Below are positions 3,832-59,639 of a stretch of DNA of 64,000 nt, piece by piece; the stretch's first letter is position 1, and every line of letters starts with the position of its first letter. The position numbers were made by a program, and so were the translations under genes. Origin of the DNA: a virus. Under the pieces are notes generated by a model. That model searched no databases. It saw only the letters and a program-made list of their open reading frames with translations, and was not told where the DNA came from. The DNA is taken from positions 14,478-78,477 of the IMG/VR virus record IMGVR_UViG_3300046777_001575; one strand, given 5' to 3'.

Positions 3832-6800
3832 TTATACCAATCCCCCTAATTCTTCTGTCTTCTGTTTGTCTAATTGTTGACATTACTGCCTGTGCAATCT
3901 CGTTTGGATTAGCATCTGTCTTTGCATTAACAGTTAATGTATATGTATTATTATACACTGCTCCCCCTGGGTTTTTACCACTATTCATTGCTCTGAGAGT
4001 ATCAACACCATGTGTATCGACTGCATACTTACTCATTATAAATTCTCCTGGAGTTAACATTGCTGGGATAGTATCTGTTCCTCTTGCAAAACCACCACTA
4101 GCAAAATATTTAGGAGGTACTATTCCACCCATGCTAAAACCAAATCTACCAAACACGCTCTTTAAAGCATTAGTTACTGTTGCAACAGGTTTTGTAACTA
4201 TATTTTTTACTGCTGATGCAACATTGGATACCCCAGTTGCAACTGCCTTGGCTACTGTAGAAACAGTACTTGCAACTGTTTTTACTACCGCAGTTGCTGG
4301 CTTTGTAACTGCTGCTACAACCTTTGCAATTGGCTGATTTACACCTAAATTCCACCCAACAGAAGGAACGGATGTTGTTTTTGTTAATGGGCTTCCACCA
4401 AGTGGATTAAATGTAGGGGTTGTTGTTGCTGTAGGCTTAGGAGTAGGTACTGGATTTGGTGTTGGATTTGGTGTTGGATTTGGTGTAGGGGTAGGATCTG
4501 GTGTAGGATCTGGCTTTGGTGTAGGGGTAGGGTCTGGCTTTGGTGTAGGGGTAGGGTCTGGGGTCGGAGTAGGCTCTGGTGTTGGTTCTGGTGTAGGCTC
4601 TGGTGTAGGGGTAGGCTCTGGTGTACCAGATGTTGCTCCAGTGATTGCATCATTGCCACTTGACTGTTGATTATTATATGCCTGTATTAATTTGTCTTGA
4701 GTATTTAAAGCAAGTTGCATTGACTCTATAAACTGCTTACTTCTTACCATAGCAAGATCTACCTGATTTTTAATTGCTTCCCAAGCATCTCTTGTTTTTC
4801 CAAGAACAGTTAAATTTTCAATATCAGTTTTTAATTGAATTTGTTTTAAACGAATAAATTCTTGAGCAGGTTCTATCTTCTTTTCTTCTAAATCAAATAT
4901 CTCATTTTGCAAATCTTTAATATCAGACTCAAGTTCTTTCCTAGTTCTATATGTTTTTGTAACTGGGTCATAGGCTTTTACTGAGTTGAGTTCATACTGT
5001 CTAGATTGCTCTAATGCTTCTCTCTGCTTTGTTACAGCATCAGCAGCCTGCTGTGCTCTCATTTCTTGTGCAGCCCTTGCCGCTGCTGCTATATCTCCAG
5101 ATGTTAGAGCCTCAGCAAGTGTTAGTTGGCCTCTTTGCTGATTAGCAATAGCAGCATTAGCCTTTTCAACATCGTCTAGTGCTTTGATTCTTTCATCATA
5201 TTTTTCATTAATTTTTTGCTCTTGATCTTCAATAGCCTTTAAGGATGCTTCCTTATCATCAATTTTATATTGAATTCCAGCAATAGTATTTTGTGCTTCC
5301 TCAATTATTTTATTGCTTTCTTTAGTGTCTAAATTAAACTTTATTTGAAGTGCAGTTTCTTCAACATCAAAGGCCTCCATAGCGTTACTAAATCCTTGAT
5401 CAAACATGTCTTGCATAAACCCAATAGTGCTCTTTAGTTGATTTAGTCTTTCATTAAAATCACTCACCATCTTATTTAGTTCATTTTGTGCAGCAATAAT
5501 TTGTGCTCTATCTGCACCCTTACTTATTAAACTGTTTATTCTTGATTGTTGAGCAGCAATAGCATTTTCCATTGATCTTAAGTTTTCATCAGAGCCAATT
5601 GCAAAAGCAGTTTCTGAACTGTATTGTTGTCTAATTCTATTTTCTTGAACTCTATCTTTCTTAAATTGAGCAATGTCTGTTTTTATTCCTGAAACTGCTG
5701 CAGCCTTTTCTTGTGCAATAGTTAATGCTTTATATTTTGCTATAAGTGATTTTAAGGTTTTATCGTTAACCCCATTTGCAATTGCTGCTGCAATTGTTTT
5801 ATCAGAAATTAATTCGTATGCATTGGCAACTGGCACTCCAAGTTTAGACAACTTATCGAATGCAATAGTTTGATTTGATAATGCTTTAGACTCTTCTTCC
5901 ATGCTAGAATTAAAATCTCCCATGGTGATTGAATACAAAGCCTCTTGAATATTTTTAGCATCTCTTTTTAGTGCAATAATATTTCCCTTGTTGTCAAACT
6001 TAAACAAAGAATTTTTTCTCTTTTCATATTCTTTTGGATCCATGCCAACAATTAGTTCAATAAGGTCCTGACTTCCACCTAGTGCTCGAATATCATTTTC
6101 TATACCACTAAATACATTTATTGTCTTGCTGCCTCCAAATAATTTATCCAATGCCTTACGAGAAGCAGACCAGCCTTCTGTAACTTTGATTTGATTCATT
6201 CTTACATCTCTAAGTTTCTTTACAAGGTCGTCAAGTGGAGAAGCCTCAACCTTGCTTCCTCCACCAGTATTGCCACCTGTTGGAGCATTTGTATTAACTT
6301 GAACATTATCAACAACAGCCTTGTTTCCTTGAGCCTCTATATATTTTTGTACAATATAGGATTTGCTTCCAGTAATACCAGCACCACCTCTTGGGCCAGT
6401 TTCTTTACGCCAAGCCTTGAAATCTTCGCTTTCAAGTATCTGTGGTTCTGGAACATTAATTAATGTAGAGATAGTAGTTGTATAAACTTTTTGCTGATCT
6501 TCAGTTAGAGTATTGAAATATGCTTCATCAAATGCTGCAGTTCCCTTAACCTGTGGCATAATTTCATAAACAATTTTTGCTGTTAAATCTTTGCTTCCTT
6601 CAATGCTGTCAAGCATTTTGTTTAGTCTGTCGTATGCTTCTTTATTCTTTGGATCTATGTAATAACTTACCATTACATCTGATGGTATAACAGCATTAAG
6701 ATTATTTAACTTAATTATATTTTTTGTAAAATCAAGAGCATCTGAGTCTTTTTCAAATGCTTCTACCTTAGTAATAAATTTTGTTTGTACTGTTTTATTG

Positions 6801-13910: not shown

Positions 13911-14567
13911 TTATGCTGTTAGGGAACGATCTACGATCTTTCCGTATGACGCATTGTCGTTTGGAAGAAGACGGAATGATACTTCAAACATTGAAGCCTC
14001 ATCACGCTTTGCTGATACTGTAACATTCTCAATTGAGAGTGCACGGTATGCAACATAGATTCTTTCCTTTGGCTCTAGAGAAGAACCAGAACCTGGTCCT
14101 ACTGCTACGAGTCCACGCTCTAGCGGAACGTCACCGATATCACCAGCAGACATCTTGAGTTGTGAAACTCCTGATGCTGTTGTTAGATCTGAGTCGTCTC
14201 CAGCAATTGCTACTAGAAGATTTTCTAGTGTTGCTTCTGCGAATGCAGTGTTTAGATTAACTGTCATACCTTGCTTGAACAAACGAGCAACGTCGAGAAG
14301 TTGGTCTACTGCTACTTCACCGAAATCAGGCTGGAATGCGAGTTCCAAACCATTTGATGTGTATCCTACGTTGGTATAGTCATTATTTGATGACAATGTA
14401 TCCTTGTAAGATGTTGTGGATGCTGTGAATACTGGAAGATCTGCTGATGCTTGAGTATCAGTAATTGCTCCAGTTAATGCTTCGTATCCAATTGGACCTG
14501 CATCATGTGTAAAAAGTGCTGCTGCACCCACGATGATGTTACTACTTGAACCACGGCTGTATGCCAT
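13911..14567 (-). CDS. Major tail (tube) protein
   Basis: NIIVGAAALF…VGYTSNGLELAFQPDFGEVAVDQ motif of actinophage tail tubes; position before chaperones; followed by a terminator. Confidence 0.85.
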   Translation of the reverse strand: MAYSRGSSSNIIVGAAALFTHDAGPIGYEALTGAITDTQASADLPVFTASTTSYKDTLSSNNDYTNVGYTSNGLELAFQPDFGEVAVDQLLDVARLFKQGMTVNLNTAFAEATLENLLVAIAGDDSDLTTASGVSQLKMSAGDIGDVPLERGLVAVGPGSGSSLEPKERIYVAYRALSIENVTVSAKRDEASMFEVSFRLLPNDNASYGKIVDRSLTA

Positions 14568-52295: not shown

Positions 52296-53146
52296 ATGAC
52301 TTACACTATAACACTAGAAACCTTCAATGGTTCAACTAAAAAAATCGCTCTCCCTTCTCGTGGTGCGGTTGCTCAATTCATCTCAACTTATCCAACACAA
52401 CTTCCCGTAGGTGTTGCGGTAAAAGTATCTTGCGACGCTTTAGGCGTTAGCGGAACACTAAGAGGAAAGGCGGTTCTCTAATGATAAACTCCGTTCTAAC
52501 AATTCCTTGTGATGAATGTAATTCAACAGGTCTAATCTTTTTTGGTAATGATTTTGACTATGATGTAGAAACCTGCTCTTGTGATTTTGGCAAAGAACAA
52601 GACCTCAATTTTTTCAACAACTAAAAGAATAGGAAATAAAAATAATGACAAAAATAATTGAACACTCTCTAAAGTTTGTAACCGAGTTTGATGAAACTCA
52701 TCCAGTATCACAGCAAGCCCTTGCTATTCCTCACTCAGAATTAGTAAAAATGCTTGAGCAAATGCTAAAAGAATTAGTCGTGCCTGCACTTGGTCCAGTT
52801 ATTGAGGAAATAAATAAAAATGGTTCTTATGCAATTCTAAAGGTGGCCGAATAATGATGACACGAAAAGACTATGTAGCAACTGCTGAAATTTTATCTTC
52901 TTATAAAGATTTAATCGCTGATGAATTTACTTTTCAAGATTTAGTAAATGATTTTGGTGCAATGTTTGAGGCAGATAATCCAAGATTTAATTTTGAAACT
53001 TTTAGAGAGGCTTGTGAAAAATGAATAGACTACTAACAACTATTGTTCAACTATTTTTAGCGGGAACTGTTTTTATTTTATTCCGCATGATGTTGCCAAT
53101 GTTAAAAGAAGATTTGCAAGAAATAAAAAACGATTTGCAAAAGTAA
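52296..53146 (+). CDS. Operon of five small early genes (52296-52481, 52481-52624, 52645-52854, 52854-53024, 53021-53146)
   Basis: Coupled ORFs; 52854 has the phage-common MTRKDY…DNPRF…F..AC pattern. Confidence 0.7.
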
Positions 53147-53151
53147 ATTGT

Positions 53152-53178
53152 GATCCTGAGCAAGATTCAAAACTGCTC
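53152..53178 (+). ncRNA. H-type pseudoknot element, copy 1
   Basis: GAUC-CU-GAGCA-A-GAUU-CAAAAC-UGCUC. Confidence 0.7.
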
Positions 53179-53377
53179 AAATTTTGGACGTGGGACTTAT
53201 CCACAGGCTGTGGAAAACCTTTAAGTACGATGTGAGATTTATCACATGGCTTGAGCGTCTCATTATTTAAGATTACTCGCTAGTAAGTTGATATTTTTTA
53301 TCTAATAGGATAGACTTACATAGTAAGAAAAAATAAATAAAGAAAGTCTATTTATCTACGGCGTGTCTAACCGAAAA

Positions 53378-53399
53378 TGTCAGACCCCTATGCTAAGAT
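53378..53399 (+). promoter_or_regulatory. PafBC-type promoter TGTCAG-N10-TAAGAT
   Basis: Exact spacing. Confidence 0.75.
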
Positions 53400-53432
53400 A
53401 GAATTATCAACAAAAAAGAAAGAGGTTGCCCA

Positions 53433-54531
53433 ATGGCTACTAAACTATACACAATAGAAAACCTACTTGTAGGAAAAACTTATCGTTCTAACTCTCGCCA
53501 CTTTGAGGGAGAAATTGTTTCTGCCCGACCAAGAACAGAAATTTGGTATGGCGAAAATACAGAAGCCTATCTAATTGAAGTAAATACTCGCAGTTTGCGA
53601 AATAAGTTTGCGACTATCGCAGTAAAGGTTGGTGAATAATAATGGGATACATAGAGATTTTTAGAATTGACAATGAAGGCGCAGGTTGGATAGACTTGTC
53701 CCAAGCCAATAGCGATGAATTGTTTAATTTAGAGTTAGGCTTACTTAATGAAGGCGCACTATTTACAACGAAAGAGGCAGACTAATGGAATACCTATACG
53801 CAGTTACTAGCACTAATGATAACGATACTAACCCTGAGTGGGTTGGTCGCTATTCTAATGCCCTTGAAGCAGTAAATGTCTTTAATAGTTTTATTGACTA
53901 TGGTGATGCAAAAGAGTATCGCACAGTTAATTTATCAGAGCCTTCAGGCAAAATGCACACTAAGATTTTTTATACTAATGGAACAGTAGGAGGTAAGTAA
54001 TAATGGGTTCAGTTACAGCAATAGGGTTGGCAGATAGTGTCCTTGACCTTGAAACACAATTACTTTATCACCTTAGAGGTAATCACTATCCTCCAGTCCC
54101 CGCAGAAATGGTAACACCTTGTATTGAAGCAATTGATGCTGCCTATGAAGAAGACTATGACCGCATGATTGACATGCCTATGGTTGGCGACTTTCAAATT
54201 ACTTATAAAGGTAGCAAGCAAGCACCTGCATGGGCTATCATAGAGCAACACCACCTTCAATTTTTTATTGACCCAGTAGATGAGGATTGAAATGTCTGAT
54301 ACAATGATTGACATGGAACTAGTCTTTGCAGATAACTTAACACCAGATCAATTAATGATTGGTGATTTAATTAAAATTGGTGACGACATTCTTGAAGTAA
54401 AATTTATTGAAAGTGATTCTACTGGAGATAACTACGACATACAAACTGAAAACGAATTTGGTGAAACAGAATTTACACAGTATAGTTATACTGATTTAAT
54501 TCCGTTGTATGTTTTTATTCAAGAAGAATAA
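53433..54531 (+). CDS. Operon of five small early genes (53433-53639, 53642-53785, 53785-54000, 54003-54290, ~54292-54531)
   Basis: Closely packed ORFs with SD sequences. Confidence 0.7.
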
Positions 54532-54660
54532 TAAAAATATTTTTATGCACTTCCCCGCATAAAAATGCACGTCCCGCAGTCGGGCGTGTCGTGATCTATG
54601 TGAGATTGATCACATTAAGCAGATTTGACATTTTCCCCCGATTTATGATAAGATTATTTT

Positions 54661-54807
54661 ATGAAAAAAACACCAGAGGAATTACGCAGGCTTATGGAAT
54701 TGCGCCGTAGCAATGCTGCTTCTGCCGTGCCCTCTAAAAAAGCCTACTCTCGCAAGGGTAGAAAATGTCAGTCTGAAATGCTACAATTAAAATATAAAAA
54801 CTACTAA
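54661..54807 (+). CDS. Small basic protein (leaderless)
   Basis: TTGACA-N18-TAAGAT-N6-ATG; MKKTPEELRRLMELRRSNAASAVPSKKAYSRKG…. Confidence 0.65.
   Translation: MKKTPEELRRLMELRRSNAASAVPSKKAYSRKGRKCQSEMLQLKYKNY
54766..54787 (+). promoter_or_regulatory. PafBC-type promoter TGTCAG-N10-TACAAT (inside an ORF)
   Basis: Exact spacing; precedes 54824-55000 and the GP88-like gene. Confidence 0.7.
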
Positions 54808-54989
54808 GAAAGGTCGTGCCCCCATGACATTCGAAAACGATGAATTCTATGATGAATTCTATGCAACAATATGCCCTTCATGCAATGAAAATTCAATAGA
54901 TGAAAATGATGAAAAGTGTGGCTCATGCATGCTAGATGAATTGGCTGAAACCTACAATGAGGATATTGCCTTAGAAATGAGCCTAGGCC

Positions 54990-55724
54990 TTGACTACTAA
55001 TACACTTAAACTAAAACGCTCTAATGATAGAAAGGTGGCTAACCTTGTCACAAAAAATGGAAAACAAGCCGCAATTGCCAACACATTCGGATTACCCGCA
55101 GGAAAAAACTATTCATGTCCTGGCGCTACGAGTGTCTGCGAAACTGTTTGCTACGCTGGCAAATTGGAAAAAATATTCCCAGGAGTAAAAACTAATTTAC
55201 TACATAACTGGGACCTGTTAAAAGACGCAGATCTTACAACTATGTACACTTTACTTTCTGATATGATTGCAGAATTTAAAACTGATTGTGTAAAGAAAGA
55301 CGCACCTATGCTATTCCGCATTCACTGGGACGGAGATTTCTTTAGCGATGAGTACGCACACGCATGGCGCATGGTTATTGAAGAACAACCCGACATTCAA
55401 TTCTGGGTATACACACGAGTAAAGTCTGCAGCGCTTATTCTTAAGGATGTATCTAATCTTTCACTTTATTTTAGTACTGATAGTGAGAATGTAAAAACTG
55501 GCGTTGACTTAAAAAATCAAAACGGTATTCGTCTTGCATACCTTGCTAAAAATTTCGCAATAGGTCAAGCAGACATGAAAGAAATGATTGGTAAGCCTGG
55601 CGCTAAATGTCCAGAAAATGCAAAACGCATTCCACTAATTAGCAATGCAGGCTCCGCTTGTGTTTCTTGCTCACTTTGTGTATACTCTAAAGCAGACATA
55701 GTTTTTTCTGCAACTAAGAAATGA
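54990..55724 (+). CDS. Gene-product-88-like (radical-SAM-related Cys cluster) phage protein
   Basis: FGLPAG…CPGATSVCETVCYA, FRIHWDGDF, FWVYTR, C-terminal CP…CVSCSLC. Confidence 0.75.
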   Translation: MTTNTLKLKRSNDRKVANLVTKNGKQAAIANTFGLPAGKNYSCPGATSVCETVCYAGKLEKIFPGVKTNLLHNWDLLKDADLTTMYTLLSDMIAEFKTDCVKKDAPMLFRIHWDGDFFSDEYAHAWRMVIEEQPDIQFWVYTRVKSAALILKDVSNLSLYFSTDSENVKTGVDLKNQNGIRLAYLAKNFAIGQADMKEMIGKPGAKCPENAKRIPLISNAGSACVSCSLCVYSKADIVFSATKK

Positions 55725-55961
55725 GTTAAAGTGAGTAATACACAAATTATTTTTTTCTTTTGGTGTTTAGTTCTTTTATTTTTTATGCAATGATCGCAAA
55801 GGTGGGCACGTCCGCAAAATCTAATTTGTCAAGTTACGACACGCCTTTAAGATGTGATTAAGGACACACTCAAAATCCTCCCCTGAATTGGTATTTTTGA
55901 CATTTTTCTGCTAAAATTATAATGTAGGAAAAACCCCCACAACAGAAAGGCAAGACCCAAA

Positions 55962-56132
55962 ATGACACTTCACGGATACACTTACCAAATTGGTGATTTA
56001 TTCACAACAAGTAAGACAGGCGTTACAGGTCGTATCGCAGGTTTTACACCAATGTCTAATAAGGTTACTAGAGTTAGTCTGGTTTTGGCAAATGGCTCAC
56101 GCCGTTTGGCTATGGTCAAGACAAGCAAGTAA
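55962..56132 (+). CDS. Small beta-barrel (SH3/KOW-like) protein
   Basis: MTLHGYTYQIGDLFTTSKTGVTGRI…; SD GAAAGG. Confidence 0.65.
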   Translation: MTLHGYTYQIGDLFTTSKTGVTGRIAGFTPMSNKVTRVSLVLANGSRRLAMVKTSK

Positions 56133-56239
56133 TCTCACATTGTGAGAAATGTCAGAAATGGATTTGACATTTTTATCCCCAAAATGTTATACTTAGGTAT
56201 AACCAAATAACAACCCCTAACAGAAAAGGAAATAAACAA

Positions 56240-56404
56240 ATGGCAGTAAATACAGCACTATACAAGGTCGGAGATACTTTCACAACACAGAAGTCAAAGA
56301 TTACAGGAACTATCTTGGAAATCAACCCACAGGCTAATGGTAATGTTCGTGTAAAGTTAGATGTAGATGGCAAGGCTCGCTACACAACTTGGACAGCAAA
56401 GTAA
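56240..56404 (+). CDS. Small beta-barrel protein, paralog of 55962-56132
   Basis: MAVNTALYKVGDTFTTQKSKITGTI…; own promoter TTGACA-N18-TATACT. Confidence 0.65.
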   Translation: MAVNTALYKVGDTFTTQKSKITGTILEINPQANGNVRVKLDVDGKARYTTWTAK

Positions 56405-56421
56405 TTTAGCAAACGCTAAAA

Positions 56422-56450
56422 AGTCCTGAGCAAGACTACTAAAACTGCTC
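56422..56450 (+). ncRNA. H-type pseudoknot element, copy 2
   Basis: AGUC-CU-GAGCA-A-GACU-ACUAAAAC-UGCUC. Confidence 0.75.
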
Positions 56451-56487
56451 AACACAACCCCCAACTAACAGAAAAGGAAAAGACCCA

Positions 56488-56913
56488 ATGGCTAGAAACG
56501 GAAAATCTATCAGCGTGAAAATCGCTACACCTAAAGTAATCAAGGCACTAGAAACACGCCTTGCTGAGTTAGAAAAGTCATACGCCACACAAGGCGAGAA
56601 CGAGGCAAAGTATCAGAAAGCCCGTGATAAGTGGCAAAAGGAAATCGGTAAGTGGGCTGTTGCTAACTTTGCTAAGGCAGAGAACATCAGAACAAACTAT
56701 CGTAATTGGAACAAAACCCTAAATGTGGATTTTGACCTTATTGTAAATGAAAGTGATTTCCCTAAAGAGCCTGAAAAGGACTTTGAGGTAATCCACTCAC
56801 ACTCTTACAATGAGATGAAAGAGGAAATCACGAACGCAATTCGTATCCTCAAAATGACAGATGAGGAAGTTGTAAATACTTCCACATACAACGCTATTGC
56901 TCGTTATCTATAA
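56488..56913 (+). CDS. Hypothetical protein
   Basis: 141 aa; SD AAAGGA. Confidence 0.75.
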   Translation: MARNGKSISVKIATPKVIKALETRLAELEKSYATQGENEAKYQKARDKWQKEIGKWAVANFAKAENIRTNYRNWNKTLNVDFDLIVNESDFPKEPEKDFEVIHSHSYNEMKEEITNAIRILKMTDEEVVNTSTYNAIARYL

Positions 56914-56923
56914 ATAACAGCAA

Positions 56924-56950
56924 CCACCTGAGTAAGTGGCTAAACTGCTC
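56924..56950 (+). ncRNA. H-type pseudoknot element, copy 3
   Basis: CCAC-CU-GAGUA-A-GUGG-CUAAAC-UGCUC. Confidence 0.75.
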
Positions 56951-57017
56951 CCCGCAATCCCCCTGCGTTCAAGGCAGAGTTTCTGCGAAAGTCCCCTGGG
57001 GGATCATAAACGGGTAT

Positions 57018-57047
57018 TTGACAAATGTCAGCCTCGTGCCCTATAAT
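57018..57047 (+). promoter_or_regulatory. Dual promoter: -35 TTGACA plus -26 TGTCAG sharing TATAAT
   Basis: TTGACA-aa-TGTCAG-N10-TATAAT. Confidence 0.8.
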
Positions 57048-57080
57048 TAAATAAATACCTAAAGAAAGAAGGAAGCCCCC

Positions 57081-57578
57081 ATGGGATTAGATATGTATCT
57101 TAGTGCTAAGAAGCACATGGAAAAAATTGACTGGAAAGCGCTAAGAGATAATGAGGAATTATCTTATTCATCACCTGAAGCCGTTTATCCTAAGTTTAAT
57201 GATTTAATGGAACTAACGCAACTAAGCGATGTTGCTACAGATATCTATGGTGCAAGTGTAGAGGTTACCTGTGCCTACTGGCGCAAGGCTAATCAAATTC
57301 ACAAATGGTTTGTCGATAATGTACAACAAGGTGAAGATGATTGTGATAACTACTATGTTTCACAAGATAAATTAATAGAGTTGATTGCAATATGTAAGCA
57401 TGCATTAGAAACTAAGGACCCTAGCCTGCTACCGCCGCAATCAGGATTTTTCTTTGGCAGTACAGATATTGATGAATGGTATTGGAAAGATTTAGAAAAT
57501 ACTATTAGTCAGTTAGAGCGTATCTTTGCTTTACCTGAAGTAGATAAATTATCATTCTACTACACTTCCTCTTGGTAG
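57081..57578 (+). CDS. Conserved phage hypothetical protein
   Basis: MGLDMYL…YWRKANQIHKWFV…GFFFGS…YTSSW. Confidence 0.8.
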   Translation: MGLDMYLSAKKHMEKIDWKALRDNEELSYSSPEAVYPKFNDLMELTQLSDVATDIYGASVEVTCAYWRKANQIHKWFVDNVQQGEDDCDNYYVSQDKLIELIAICKHALETKDPSLLPPQSGFFFGSTDIDEWYWKDLENTISQLERIFALPEVDKLSFYYTSSW

Positions 57579-57600
57579 GGGAAGTTAGTAGGATCCAAAA

Positions 57601-57630
57601 TTGACAATTGTCAGCGGTACCTAGTACAAT
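57601..57630 (+). promoter_or_regulatory. Dual promoter: -35 TTGACA plus -26 TGTCAG sharing TACAAT
   Basis: TTGACA-at-TGTCAG-N10-TACAAT. Confidence 0.8.
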
Positions 57631-57662
57631 TAATATTAACAACTAACAGAAAGAGGGCCCCC

Positions 57663-58088
57663 ATGGACCAGCAAGAAACAGCAGTAAAGATAGTAAACGC
57701 AACAGAAGACTTTCTTAAGTCAGAAATTGAAAAGAAGGACCAACGCATTACTCAACTAGAAGAGCACATTCAAAAAGTAACGCAGCGCTCATATGCAGAT
57801 TCTGCAGACCGTAACCGTATCACAGAGGCCATGCAAGAGTGGACCTTGGAGCAATTGGACGAAGGGTCTCTTACAGAATCACAGGCCGAAGAGATTGCAG
57901 AAATTATTGGCTTTGAGTTAACAAAAGAATTCGAAGTTGAAGTAACTGTGATGTACTCAGTCACTGTTAATGCTCGCACTGAAGAAGAAGCACAGAATGC
58001 AATTCATGATATTGATTTTGATTCTGTTTCTTATAACGATGATTCAATTTCTTATCTGTCATCCTCAATTGACAGAATAGATATTTAG
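57663..58088 (+). CDS. Hypothetical acidic coiled-coil protein
   Basis: 141 aa ORF after a promoter and SD. Confidence 0.75.
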   Translation: MDQQETAVKIVNATEDFLKSEIEKKDQRITQLEEHIQKVTQRSYADSADRNRITEAMQEWTLEQLDEGSLTESQAEEIAEIIGFELTKEFEVEVTVMYSVTVNARTEEEAQNAIHDIDFDSVSYNDDSISYLSSSIDRIDI

Positions 58089-58103
58089 TAGGGGGCTACT
58101 AAT

Positions 58104-58130
58104 AAACCTGAGCATGTTTTAAAACTGCTC
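58104..58130 (+). ncRNA. H-type pseudoknot element, copy 4
   Basis: AAAC-CU-GAGCA-U-GUUU-UAAAAC-UGCUC. Confidence 0.7.
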
Positions 58131-58261
58131 CTCTTTTCCCCAAAAAAATGCACGTGGGGTTTATCCACAGGGTTATCCACATGATCAAGATCACATTGTG
58201 AATTACGACACAGTTACGAAATGTCCGAATTATCCCATGTCTAACTATCCCGATTTGTATT

Positions 58262-58283
58262 TGTCAGCCTATCCTGCTATACT
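58262..58283 (+). promoter_or_regulatory. PafBC-type promoter TGTCAG-N10-TATACT
   Basis: Exact spacing; upstream of the DUF932 gene. Confidence 0.75.
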
Positions 58284-58314
58284 TGAAATTCAACAACAAA
58301 AAGGAGAAAAACTC

Positions 58315-59337
58315 ATGGCACATGACCTAGAAACACAAAACGGAAAAACATCTTTTGCTTCTTTCCGTGAACCTGCTTGGCATGGATTGGGAACTGTCTT
58401 CACAGAAGAAAAAACAACTGCAGAAATGCTAGAGGCTGCAAACCTCAATGGTTGGAATGTTCGTCTGGAAGATTTAGAAACCCCCTCACATCTAACAAGC
58501 GACAAGAACTACCAGTATGTTCTTCGCACTAACCCTACTGATAACACACAAACCGACATTCTTGGTGTCGTTGGTGAGCGTTATCATGTTTTGCAGAATG
58601 AAGATTTATTCTCATTTGGTGATAACATTCTTGACGGCGGTGGTCGTTGGGAAACTGCTGGCTCAATCAAGGGTGGTCGTGTTGTATTCGGTGCTCTTGC
58701 ATTAGAGCGTGAAACAATTCTAGACCCTAGCGGTGTTGCAGATAAAGTAAAAACTTATTTGCTCATCAACACATCACACGATGGCTCAATCGCAATTCAG
58801 GCTTCAATCACACCAGTGCGTGTTGTCTGCGCTAATACTCTCAACCTTGCTCTTGGTGGCGTAGGTCGTAAGAAAAATAAGGGTATCAAGCAATCATTCA
58901 AGATACGCCATACACAAACTGCAAATGGTAAAGTGCAGATTGCTCGTGAAACTCTTGGGCTTGCTAACACTTACATGGACGAATTCGATAAAATGGCTAA
59001 GGCTATGATTGAGAAGGAAGTTTCTGCTAAGCAATTCAATGACATCATTCTTGCTGCATACGCTAAGCCTGAAAAGGACGCTAAGGGTGCTTTCAAGAAA
59101 TGGGAAAATAAAGTTGATACTATCAACGACATCTATACTGGCGAATTCAATGGAATGATTGCTGGTAATGCGTGGGGTGCTTTCAATGCACTTACTGAAC
59201 GCCTTGATTGGTATCGTTCTGCTCGTGGTGGTTCTAACGAGTCAATCCTCGCAAGTGCAAGTGGTTTTGACCCTGCTATCAACGCAGAAAAAAATCGTTT
59301 GCTAAAAGTTGTGCAAAATGTAATGCAGATTGCATAA
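58315..59337 (+). CDS. DUF932 / phage-plasmid-like protein (TIGR03299 type)
   Basis: REPAWHGLG, WETAGSIKGGRVVF, YLLINTSHDGS, TPVRVVCANTL. Start re-set to MAHDLE after SD AAGGAG. Confidence 0.88.
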   Translation: MAHDLETQNGKTSFASFREPAWHGLGTVFTEEKTTAEMLEAANLNGWNVRLEDLETPSHLTSDKNYQYVLRTNPTDNTQTDILGVVGERYHVLQNEDLFSFGDNILDGGGRWETAGSIKGGRVVFGALALERETILDPSGVADKVKTYLLINTSHDGSIAIQASITPVRVVCANTLNLALGGVGRKKNKGIKQSFKIRHTQTANGKVQIARETLGLANTYMDEFDKMAKAMIEKEVSAKQFNDIILAAYAKPEKDAKGAFKKWENKVDTINDIYTGEFNGMIAGNAWGAFNALTERLDWYRSARGGSNESILASASGFDPAINAEKNRLLKVVQNVMQIA

Positions 59338-59344
59338 ATAAAAA

Positions 59345-59372
59345 ATTTCCTGAGCATGAAATAAAACTGCTC
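59345..59372 (+). ncRNA. H-type pseudoknot element, copy 5
   Basis: AUUUC-CU-GAGCA-U-GAAAU-AAAAC-UGCUC; 7 nt before the tRNA. Confidence 0.75.
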
Positions 59373-59379
59373 ACCATTA

Positions 59380-59453
59380 GGTCCGTTAGAATAGTTGGTT
59401 AGTTCGCTACCCTGTCACGGTAGAGGTCACGGGTTCAAGTCCCGTACGGATCG
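59380..59453 (+). tRNA. tRNA-Asp(GTC)
   Basis: Acceptor GGTCCGT/ACGGATC, discriminator G, anticodon arm CTACC-CTGTCAC-GGTAG, T-loop GTTCAAG; CCA not encoded. Confidence 0.93.
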
Positions 59454-59639
59454 CAATTAATAAATATGCATTGCAGTGCATAAAAAATGCACGTGAGTAC
59501 AAACCAGACAATTCGGACATATCAAAAATGTCAAATTGAAAAATCTTTACGAAGGCTATTACTGATCTCCCAAAATGTCAAACCTAAAAATCTTTACGAT
59601 AGAGTTGACATTTCCCAGGTTCTAGACTACAATTAATAT

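Follow-up and report, generated by a model that had tools for sequence, protein, structure and literature searches.

The 64,000-nucleotide window analysed here (positions 14,478 to 78,477 of the IMG/VR virus record IMGVR_UViG_3300046777_001575) contains a very small, interlocked RNA fold in five true copies, and this fold belongs to a large family that occurs in the phages of many bacterial groups. Its structure, conservation, placement, and co-transcription with the downstream sequence were established in this analysis, and we infer nuclease blocking, and the direction of that blocking. The knot's probable role is that of a roadblock shielding the ends of messages; our preferred and still tentative explanation (probability roughly 0.4) is that it would form a protein-independent exonuclease roadblock at gene ends, capping the 3′ end of the upstream message.

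A preliminary description of this DNA had reported five copies of a pseudoknot, and all of them were recovered here at the same positions, each on the plus strand, together with the claimed stem 1 pairings and a GAGCA/UGCUC stem 2 with one U-G pair (Table 1). The same description had located the copies 5-17 nt past a stop codon; as measured from the stop to the beginning of stem 1, the gaps are 5, 17, 10, 15, and 7 nt for copies 1 to 5, respectively, and at copy 4 a small hairpin occupies the intervening space. Copy 2 ends 38 nt before the start of the next ORF (56488-56913), and tRNA-Asp does begin 7 nt downstream of copy 5, where the predicted RNase P site of this tRNA would leave a 7-nt tail on the knot. 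The loop elements CU and AAAC are identical in all five window copies. A pattern search of the window returned four copies with a narrow gap and five with a wider gap (0.01 expected from shuffles), and a covariance model (R1) separates the five copies (34-47 bits, E ≤ 6e-9) from all else, the next-best window match (13.7 bits) being inside a large minus-strand ORF.

Table 1. Pseudoknot copies and associated features in the window.
Feature	Position	Strand	Upstream ORF	Details
Pseudoknot copy 1	53152..53178	+	53021-53146	Stem 1 GAUC/GAUU; stem 2 GAGCA/UGCUC; base +1 = A; 40.2 bits
Pseudoknot copy 2	56422..56450	+	56240-56404	Stem 1 AGUC/GACU; longer loop 3 (ACUAAAAC); 34.3 bits
Pseudoknot copy 3	56924..56950	+	56488-56913	Stem 1 CCAC/GUGG; stem 2 GAGUA/UGCUC with U-G pair; 40.2 bits
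Consensus sigma-70-type promoter	57018..57047	+		TTGACA-18-TATAAT; 67 nt 3′ of copy 3
Pseudoknot copy 4	58104..58130	+	57663-58088	Stem 1 AAAC/GUUU; 46.1 bits
Pseudoknot copy 5	59345..59372	+	58198-59337 (DUF932 gene)	Stem 1 AUUUC/GAAAU; tail ACCA; 47.4 bits
tRNA-Asp(GUC)	59380..59454	+		63.8 bits to RF00005

The fold is an H-type pseudoknot of 27-30 nt. A C-G pair that never changes closes the variable stem 1 (4-5 bp); loop 1 is C(U), stem 2 is a purine-rich helix of 5-6 bp, (U)GAGYA/UGCUC(A), the junction is a single base, and loop 3 ends in an invariant AAAC, which probably lies in the stem 1 minor groove. The U of loop 1 can pair with the base that follows UGCUC. Copies 1, 2, and 5 have A there, as does 60% of the family; with this A, stem 2 often reaches 6 bp and loop 1 shrinks to a single C. 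A pattern search of IMG/VR phage contigs gave 158 matches. At least three contiguous stem 1 pairs in a fixed register are present in 141 of the 158 unfiltered matches (3.5% expected per hit). On 131 aligned copies, 97.7% of cells are paired (vs. 26-42% in slid registers), double changes are found at 7 of 9 pairs, and the closing pair is C-G without exception (131/131). Stem 2 (5 bp) is paired throughout (100%), 4 of its 5 pairs show double changes, and it covaries in extra copies (e.g., GGACA/UGUCC and AAGCA/UGCUU); the search for such stem 2 variants gave 0 matches in 1.06 Mb of reversed-sequence controls. G-U pairs were found on the sense strand only, which places the motif on the sense-strand RNA. 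In nested folding, stem 2 alone provides only -5 to -7 kcal/mol, and the conserved loops are therefore needed for stability. The earlier reading of a compact, covarying H-type pseudoknot past stop codons is borne out by about 200 independent copies.

The carriers are unrelated phage types (crAss-like, T7-like, sipho-, podo-, and T4-like, including T4-like cyanophages), the flanking gene families are diverse, and several copies per genome follow unrelated genes. Because of this diversity of flanking genes and carriers, no phage partner or specific gene appears to be involved, and the unrelatedness of the carriers likewise disfavours the earlier suggestion of a tag for a phage-encoded protein. 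The preliminary description had matched the motif to no known family; comparison with Rfam 15 likewise gave no match for the knot, including on 46-nt slices at E ≤ 10, and no description of the motif was found in the published literature.

Three aspects of placement, namely the stop-to-knot spacing, the bias in long gaps, and the position of tRNAs, point to a tie between the knot and its upstream gene. Between the stop codon (TAA in 74 cases, TAG in 25, and TGA in 9) and the closing C of stem 1 there is a hard floor of 8 nt: only 2 of 108 distances are shorter, and the counts from 8 nt upward run 23, 15, 11, 12, 9, and onward. The ribosomal helicase boundary lies at about +11/+12 from the P site, and the 8-nt floor places the first base of stem 1 at about this position relative to the P site of the terminating ribosome, which would thus never be required to unwind the knot. 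In long gaps, the knot is more often closer to the upstream stop than to the downstream start (27 vs. 13). A same-strand tRNA lies 4-13 nt 3′ of the knot in 16 of 195 copies, and none of these 195 lies within 25 nt downstream of a tRNA; in Arthrobacter phage Amigo the order is SSB gene, knot, 3 nt, and tRNA-Gly. The next start codons peak at 20-39 nt past the knot, with a minimum of about 17-20 nt, and the knot does not overlap the downstream Shine-Dalgarno sequence.

RNA contigs bridge copies 1 and 2, and there is no U-tract terminator at the window copies, which the preliminary description had called mostly free of U-tracts; an intrinsic (Rho-independent) terminator was rejected on these grounds. 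Terminator-like sites occur within 200 nt downstream in only 9 of 178 cases. Furthermore, downstream genes at 20-39 nt and tRNAs at 4-13 nt leave no room for a promoter, which also argues against a terminator. Just past copy 3, RNA-contig depth drops 30-100 fold, in a sum that includes relatives and is taken over assembled contigs, which cannot show ends. Copy 3 itself would end a transcription unit, and would not lead the next one, given the consensus promoter downstream of it (Table 1).

Among the options raised in the preliminary description, an exonuclease-blocking or end-marking element would be the best fit to the spacing floor, the tRNA placement, and the co-transcription. Under the 3′ cap explanation, each copy would be transcribed within the sense mRNA and then fold into a compact mechanical roadblock at the gene end, without the help of a phage protein; situated just beyond the footprint of the terminating ribosome, the knot would stay folded during translation of both neighbours. 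The polycistronic RNA may then be cut downstream, either where RNase P acts on a neighbouring tRNA or where another endonuclease cleaves the G-poor, A/U-rich tail, or may alternatively be trimmed back from its distal end, and 3′-to-5′ exonucleases would halt at the knot, such that the upstream message would survive. The REP hairpins of E. coli and the triple helices of MALAT1 and the PAN ENE are intercistronic or 3′ stabilisers of mRNA, and in the MALAT1 and PAN ENE systems RNase P, acting at a tRNA-like structure, generates the 3′ end. The phage knot shares with these elements a compact structure just past an ORF, inside or at the transcript end, that is proposed to stop 3′ exonucleases, and the succession of knot and tRNA parallels that of triple helix and mascRNA in MALAT1; the fold (a pseudoknot as opposed to a hairpin or U-A-U triple helix), sequence, and organisms differ, however, and the phage function is one that we infer. 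Against a 3′ cap, a helix of 9-11 bp is short for stopping RNase R, and plain frameshifting pseudoknots of similar size fail to stop Xrn1 (PMC10321173).

The -1 frameshifting pseudoknots of luteovirids (e.g., BWYV, 28 nt) resemble the phage knot in size, in a stem 1 of 4-5 bp, in a loop 1 of 1-2 nt with a C able to form a major-groove triple, in a one-base junction, and in an A-rich loop 3 in the stem 1 minor groove. The phage knot differs in its longer stem 2, in lacking a slippery site, and in lying at least 5 nt past the stop, and a frameshift element, which would be expected 5-8 nt past a slippery heptamer in overlapping reading frames, was rejected because the knots follow stop codons and have no overlapping frame. 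The BWYV knot does not block Xrn1 (PMC10321173).

The main rival to the 3′ cap, possible yet rather unlikely, is a block acting in the opposite direction, by which the knot, as a bacterial counterpart of viral xrRNAs, would stop RNase J, or the 5′-end-dependent scanning of RNase E, on arrival from the upstream cistron, leaving the downstream RNA to outlive the upstream RNA. The sharp ribosome-spacing floor suggests that the knot resists unwinding from its 5′ side. Additionally, the knot resembles, at the sequence level, coremin (xrRNA-C) and its Watson-Crick variant (xrRNA-WCC), which occur in beny-, cucumo-, and other RNA viruses (PMC6546385, PMC10520033, PMC10321173). Common to the phage knot and coremin are a short first stem (4-5 and 3-5 bp, respectively) whose closing pair is a sequence-specific C-G and a loop that begins with C. 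The spacers are partly alike: that of coremin accepts changes and insertions in its 5′ part, and phage loop 3 likewise varies there in sequence and length. The coremin spacer then has an essential AAACUA (A15-A17, C18, U19, A20), and every phage copy has AAACU at this place, followed by G (R in variants). With xrRNA-WCC the knot shares canonical pairing of the loop with the bases after AAAC, and the heptaloop CGAGUAA, which is a single U away from the phage loop CUGAGUAA, was Xrn1-resistant in the BNYVV coremin context (PMC6546385, PMC10520033, PMC10321173). In contrast to coremin, the phage stem 2 is a covarying helix of 5-6 bp (vs. none or 3 bp), five bases of the loop pair downstream, and the loop (C-U-G-A-G-Y-A-W) departs from the coremin consensus, YGAD or YGNNAD, in having U rather than G as its second base. 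Moreover, hp2, the second hairpin directly after the spacer, without which neither coremin type resists Xrn1, is not a regular part of the phage element: a hairpin within 6 nt and with an MFE ≤ -5 kcal/mol follows in only 54 of 191 copies, and the mean z of the 3′ flank is -0.43. The phage knot also differs in lying past stop codons in DNA phages of bacteria, which have no Xrn1.

Host range also bears on the choice between the two directions. Real copies occur in genomes or phages of Firmicutes, Actinobacteria, Cyanobacteria, Rhodobacterales, Bacteroidota, Saccharibacteria, and others, and are depleted in beta/gamma-proteobacterial genomes (1/26 vs. 27/97, p = 0.008); no full-length intergenic match was seen in the phages and plasmids of beta/gamma-proteobacteria. 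RNase J is above cut-off in 8 of 10 carrier genomes and in 0 of 5 beta/gamma genomes, and, taken with the depletion, this pattern indicates a 5′-to-3′ enzyme at least as much as a 3′ cap. The phyletic pattern is confounded, however, by two enzymes typical of beta/gamma-proteobacteria, poly(A) polymerase I and RNase II, both of which assist in overcoming structures at 3′ ends. In four cultured phages (Lj771, StB12, poppyseed, and phig1e), the only copy precedes the scaffold and major capsid genes, a position that fits protection of the downstream RNA better than a 3′ cap. Against RNase J blocking, long-gap knots hug the upstream stop and a promoter often follows, such that the downstream gene's own transcript would lack the knot, and no copy is found just 3′ of a tRNA, where a new 5′-monophosphate end would need protection.

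It is improbable that the knot is instead a tRNA-acceptor mimic, serving as a signal for RNase P or a tRNA-end enzyme, in which the stacked stems and an ACCA-like tail would imitate an acceptor arm, in the manner of the tRNA-like structure of TYMV; polycistronic RNA would then be punctuated by the knot or would gain from it a tRNA-like 3′ end that resists trimming. Copies do lie near real tRNA genes, and the tail after UGCUC is A (60%) and then pyrimidines, with ACC the commonest trinucleotide (28/195) and ACCA present in 17 of 195 copies, compared with about 6 expected from position frequencies. RNase P prefers U at -1, a G-C first pair, and an A discriminator, and the knot fits all three determinants. 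However, only about 15% of copies have CC next, the U at -1 probably pairs with the A at +1 and so lengthens stem 2, and the stacked helix is 9-11 bp, as compared with about 12 bp, ending in RCCA, in a tRNA-like acceptor; furthermore, RNase P is universal, which leaves the beta/gamma depletion unexplained.

We likewise give little weight to readings in which the knot is bound by a conserved host protein or is itself a small-molecule aptamer or self-cleaving ribozyme. The near-invariance of the loops and stem 2 across phyla is the usual mark of a binding pocket or active site, and the preQ1-I aptamer is similar in architecture: the preQ1-I riboswitch (RF00522) likewise folds as an H-type pseudoknot, spans about 30 nt, and combines a short loop 1 with a loop 3 rich in A. 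Set against this are the absence of any gene-family link or Rfam match and the several copies per genome after unrelated genes. The ribozyme option of the preliminary description is neither favoured nor disfavoured by these data, and its aptamer or riboswitch option is disfavoured, given that the flanking genes are unrelated and that the fold stays at least 17-20 nt from the next start and leaves the Shine-Dalgarno sequence untouched; a preQ1-I riboswitch in particular was rejected, as the knot is not 5′ of queuosine genes and sequesters no Shine-Dalgarno sequence. Least probable is a translation insulator that would block post-termination ribosome sliding, re-initiation, or inter-cistron pairing so that each gene is translated from its own ribosome-binding site only: the post-stop floor on one side and the minimum to the following start on the other agree with ribosome footprints, and coremin halts scanning ribosomes in eukaryotic extracts (PMC10520033), but copies directly before tRNA genes, copies that end transcription units and precede promoters, and the host range are left unexplained.

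A family this common and conserved merits an Rfam entry even without a known function, and the motif would aid phage annotation by showing where genes end and which strand is coding. Should the knot stop bacterial exonucleases, phages would have in it a very small and portable stabiliser of mRNA that needs no protein, and a general means to tune gene dosage within operons. The xrRNA idea would in that case extend from eukaryotic RNA viruses to DNA phages, and synthetic transcripts in Gram-positive bacteria, actinobacteria, and cyanobacteria could be stabilised with a simple part. It is conceivable, though rather doubtful, that the knot represents a class of exoribonuclease-resistant RNA that would be the first in the bacterial world, protein-free and roughly 28 nt long, kin to coremin by descent or convergence, that the phages and mobile elements of RNase J hosts would use as general punctuation to set the relative lifetimes of cistrons.

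The window covers the last 64 kb, at the 3' end, of an IMG/VR phage contig that measures 78.5 kb, comes from fresh water, and is estimated to be 72% complete. From base 1 to ∼50,000 it encodes large minus-strand genes, including portal, head protease, major head, tail fibres, and ribonucleotide reductase, and from ∼51,000 on it continues as a plus-strand arm of small genes with many sigma-70-like promoters. All five copies of the pseudoknot (hereafter, the knot) are in this arm, on the plus strand, against a chance expectation of 0.01 for the pattern. A covariance model made from relatives, as proposed in the preliminary description, parts these copies (34–47 bits) from the rest; the runner-up (13.7 bits, at 4705–4742) is without the motif, falls within a 2982-aa ORF, and is not a copy. 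The other particulars of that description also hold: the positions of the five copies, their stem-1 pairings, the one U-G pair in stem 2, the CU and AAAC loops invariant among the five, the 5–17 nt between stop codon and copy, the tRNA-Asp 7 nt beyond one of them, and the lack of U-tracts.

Copies of the knot in the window
Feature	Position	Strand	Basis
Knot copy 1	53152-53178	+	pattern + covariance model
Knot copy 2	56422-56450	+	pattern + covariance model
Knot copy 3	56924-56950	+	pattern + covariance model
Knot copy 4	58104-58130	+	pattern + covariance model
Knot copy 5	59345-59372	+	pattern + covariance model

No cultured-phage relatives of this region were recovered by megablast or blastn, which returned tRNA matches only, and the two 141-aa ORFs adjoining copies 2–4 are not paralogous. 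The region is present in RNA libraries, and metatranscriptome contigs, in which RNA ends are not visible, span copies 1 and 2. Contig depth, pooled over relatives, drops 30–100 fold directly after copy 3 in all four runs, a weak hint that is not counted as evidence here. A consensus promoter lies 67 nt past copy 3 and includes TGTCAG-N10-TATAAT (window 57027–57047). Perfect DnaA-box consensus sites (TTATCCACA) number eight in the window, versus 0.87 expected (52050, 53197, 58161, and 58173 on the plus strand; 63549, 63561, 63636, and 27858 on the minus strand); seven are in the early-gene arm, including a tandem pair directly after copy 4 and a trio near 63.6 kb, and these sites could belong to an origin of replication or to promoters responsive to DnaA. 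The motif AAAAAUGCACGUG(G/A)G occurs downstream of copies 4 and 5 (58146–58158 and 59485–59497, the latter past the tRNA), with a degenerate, weaker form at 53186, after copy 1; its count is not significant alone (13 versus 8 expected at one mismatch), and a promoter or operator specific to the phage is one possible reading. In RNA contigs of related phages, different genes are joined exactly at knot edges (window 56918/56420 and 59373/56225), which suggests that gene-plus-knot units are swapped as cassettes among relatives.

The knot belongs to a kind of structure already known, but as an RNA family it is new and absent from catalogues. Comparison with Rfam, also proposed in the preliminary description, gave no family match for the knot in Rfam 15, even for 46-nt slices at E ≤ 10; a cmscan of 14 kb and of 46- and 106-nt slices returned tRNA plus chance box-D-like matches only. 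No account of the motif was found in the literature on phage xrRNA and pseudoknots, on exoribonuclease resistance and RNase J, or with the string CCUGAGCA.

Searching IMG/VR with the conserved letters only (stem 1 was left out of the pattern) located the motif in at least 120 contigs. Among the matches listed, 141 of 158 have three or more contiguous, same-register stem-1 pairs (3.5% expected per match), and most of the others pair with a longer junction. Matches to the same pattern in bacterial genomes serve as a built-in control for stem 1: 67 of 123 lack any stem-1 pair, and look like chance, while 40 have three or more. Across 131 aligned copies, 97.7% of cells are paired (26–42% with the partner slid), with double-sided changes in seven of nine pairs. 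Because the letters of stem 2 were fixed by the search pattern, variants were sought by descriptor search of the fetched contigs; this located GGACA/UGUCC, AAGCA/UGCUU, GGGUA/UACCC, AGACA/UGUCU, and AGGCA/UGCCU, with none in reversed control sequence, and these variants, which still pair, define stem 2 as RRRYA/URYYY. One stem-2 position is G-U in 38 of the 131 copies, where the opposite strand would give A-C mismatches, which places the fold in the sense RNA. A relaxed search on loop invariance returned mainly reverse complements of true copies, since stem 2 is self-complementary in outline, and few non-canonical loops.

Nested folding recovers stem 2 only (−5 to −7 kcal/mol), often lengthened by the loop-1 U and the following base (A in 60% of copies), such that loop 1 may consist of just one C spanning a stem of 6 bp. 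Approximately 10 nt on either side of the knot are G-poor, which probably avoids competing pairings. The 45 nt upstream fold better than shuffles (mean z −1.09), and a G+C-rich hairpin followed by AGGAU immediately precedes stem 1 in several unrelated contigs (L008, L028, L065, L106, L031, L061, and L118). A sub-class of knots (IMG/VR contigs L007, L010, L056, L072, L083, and L108) combines a junction of 3 nt with a stem 1 of 6 bp, AUAGAC/GUCUAU, and is always preceded by a conserved, structured ∼50 nt ending GUGGCUA, together with which it may form a larger composite RNA.

The knot lies between genes and points the same way as its neighbors across 195 non-redundant copies, in agreement with 11 of 11 annotated cultured-phage examples. 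On convergent versus co-directional neighbors, a crude gene caller gave output too noisy to set polarity. Between the stop codon and the stem-1 closing C there is a hard floor of 8 nt, with counts of 23, 15, 11, 12, and 9 upward from there, then falling, and only two cases below it. At the floor, with a stem of 4–5 bp and the stop codon in the A site, the first paired base is at ∼+11/+12 from the P site, which is where the ribosome begins to unwind mRNA; the knot is thus placed as near the stop as possible while always escaping unwinding by the terminating ribosome. Downstream, 17–20 nt or more separate it from the next start codon, mostly 20–39 nt, which just fits a ribosome-binding site, and in long gaps the knot is closer to the stop codon before it than to the start codon after it by 27 to 13. 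Sixteen copies have a tRNA gene of the same strand (Asp, Arg, or Ser) starting 4–13 nt after them, and none of the 195 is within 25 nt downstream of one; in Arthrobacter phage Amigo, the order is SSB gene, knot, 3 nt, tRNA-Gly. ACCA directly follows the knot in 17 of 195 copies (∼6 expected), before tRNAs and ORFs alike, including copy 5 in the window (59373–59376), and this tail looks like a tRNA 3' end.

The main alternative to a protective role at the 3' end, and one we consider less likely, is the opposite polarity, in which the knot would block 5'-to-3' decay by RNase J as a bacterial counterpart of the xrRNAs. The knot resembles the coremin xrRNA of RNA viruses and its Watson-Crick variant, with which it shares a C-G closing pair, a loop beginning with C, and a tolerant 5' spacer; the AAACU essential to coremin also stands in the knot, followed there by G (R in variants) where coremin has A, and an Xrn1-resistant heptaloop is one U away from the phage loop (PMC6546385; PMC10520033; PMC10321173). 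However, coremin needs a second, downstream hairpin (hp2), which was sought at the copies and is not present as a rule, being missing from most. The host range is in keeping with RNase J: with chance matches as the yardstick for the amount of sequence searched, real copies are 1 of 26 matches in beta/gamma-proteobacterial genomes versus 27 of 97 elsewhere (p = 0.008), and RNase J scores above its cut-off in 8 of 10 genomes with the knot and in 0 of 5 from beta/gamma-proteobacteria, although this phyletic signal is confounded with other beta/gamma-proteobacterial traits. No full-length intergenic copy was seen in beta/gamma-proteobacterial phages and plasmids, with 27 Vibrio records left out; partial BLAST matches in Staphylococcus kayviruses, Erwinia, Acinetobacter, and Serratia are inside coding sequence, do not span the motif, and were counted as chance. 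In four cultured phages (Lj771, StB12, poppyseed, and phig1e), the one copy present lies ahead of the scaffold and capsid genes, as a 5' block would have it, but where a knot closes a unit and a promoter follows, the next transcript can get no protection from it.

Lesser alternatives are a tRNA-acceptor mimic or RNase P signal, with which the excess of ACCA tails is consistent, a translation insulator, and a host-protein site, aptamer, or ribozyme. The preliminary description had offered exonuclease blocking or processing, protein binding, and an aptamer or ribozyme; its observation is confirmed and extended, and its interpretation is borne out in part, with exonuclease blocking favored and an aptamer or ribozyme among the lesser readings. 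A partner protein encoded by the phage is unlikely given how varied the carriers are: crAss-like phages, a T7-like Paracoccus phage, Lactobacillus, Staphylococcus, and Bacillus phages, Roseobacter SIO1, T4-like cyanophages, Arthrobacter and Mycobacterium phages, and mobile-element-like regions of Saccharibacteria. Cultured carriers include Bacillus phage Page/poppyseed, Lactobacillus phage phig1e, prophage Lj771, and Synechococcus S-RIM4. Saccharibacteria make up a disproportionate share of the bacterial genomes that carry real copies (the MAGs L136, L138, L149, L167, L178, and L236); their knots come after small genes of the DUF3768 or DUF7249 families, which are typical of the leading regions of conjugative elements, and phage knots often follow DUF932 or ArdA. 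The knot is not a terminator, since a tRNA at 4–13 nt or an ORF at 20–39 nt downstream leaves no space for its own promoter and RNA polymerase therefore reads through, in agreement with the RNA contigs spanning copies 1 and 2 and with how seldom terminator-like sites lie close by (9 of 178). A gene-specific riboswitch is unlikely too, as the flanking genes are unrelated: upstream families include DUF932 (the commonest, 16 of 105), ArdA, DUF3768, DUF2958, DUF4192, SSB, and reductase genes, downstream genes are a broad mix, and no Pfam family is common to the proteins on either side.

Three features call for explanation: a fold that remains closed beside translating ribosomes, its tie to gene ends, and a sequence constant across hosts. 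They are most simply accounted for if the fold acts by itself, as a compact mechanical roadblock. Its layout, like that of the luteovirid frameshift knots, would suit triples between loop 1 and the major groove and contacts of AAAC in the minor groove, which may lend it strength beyond its 9–11 base pairs. We tentatively favor a 3' cap for the upstream message (probability roughly 0.4), a polarity chosen because of the tRNA asymmetry, the pull to the upstream stop, and the promoter past copy 3, and not exclusive of a 5'-to-3' block. A short tail after the knot would be left by RNase P at an adjacent tRNA, by a different endonuclease cutting the G-poor, A/U-rich stretch beyond the knot, or by trimming from a distal end; 3' exonucleases would then stall at the knot, and the upstream message would persist. 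The nearest parallels are the REP elements, which act as stabilizers within operons of E. coli, and the triple helix of MALAT1, where RNase P generates the end by cutting at a tRNA-like structure. As judged from sequence, protecting message ends is a plausible role for the knot.
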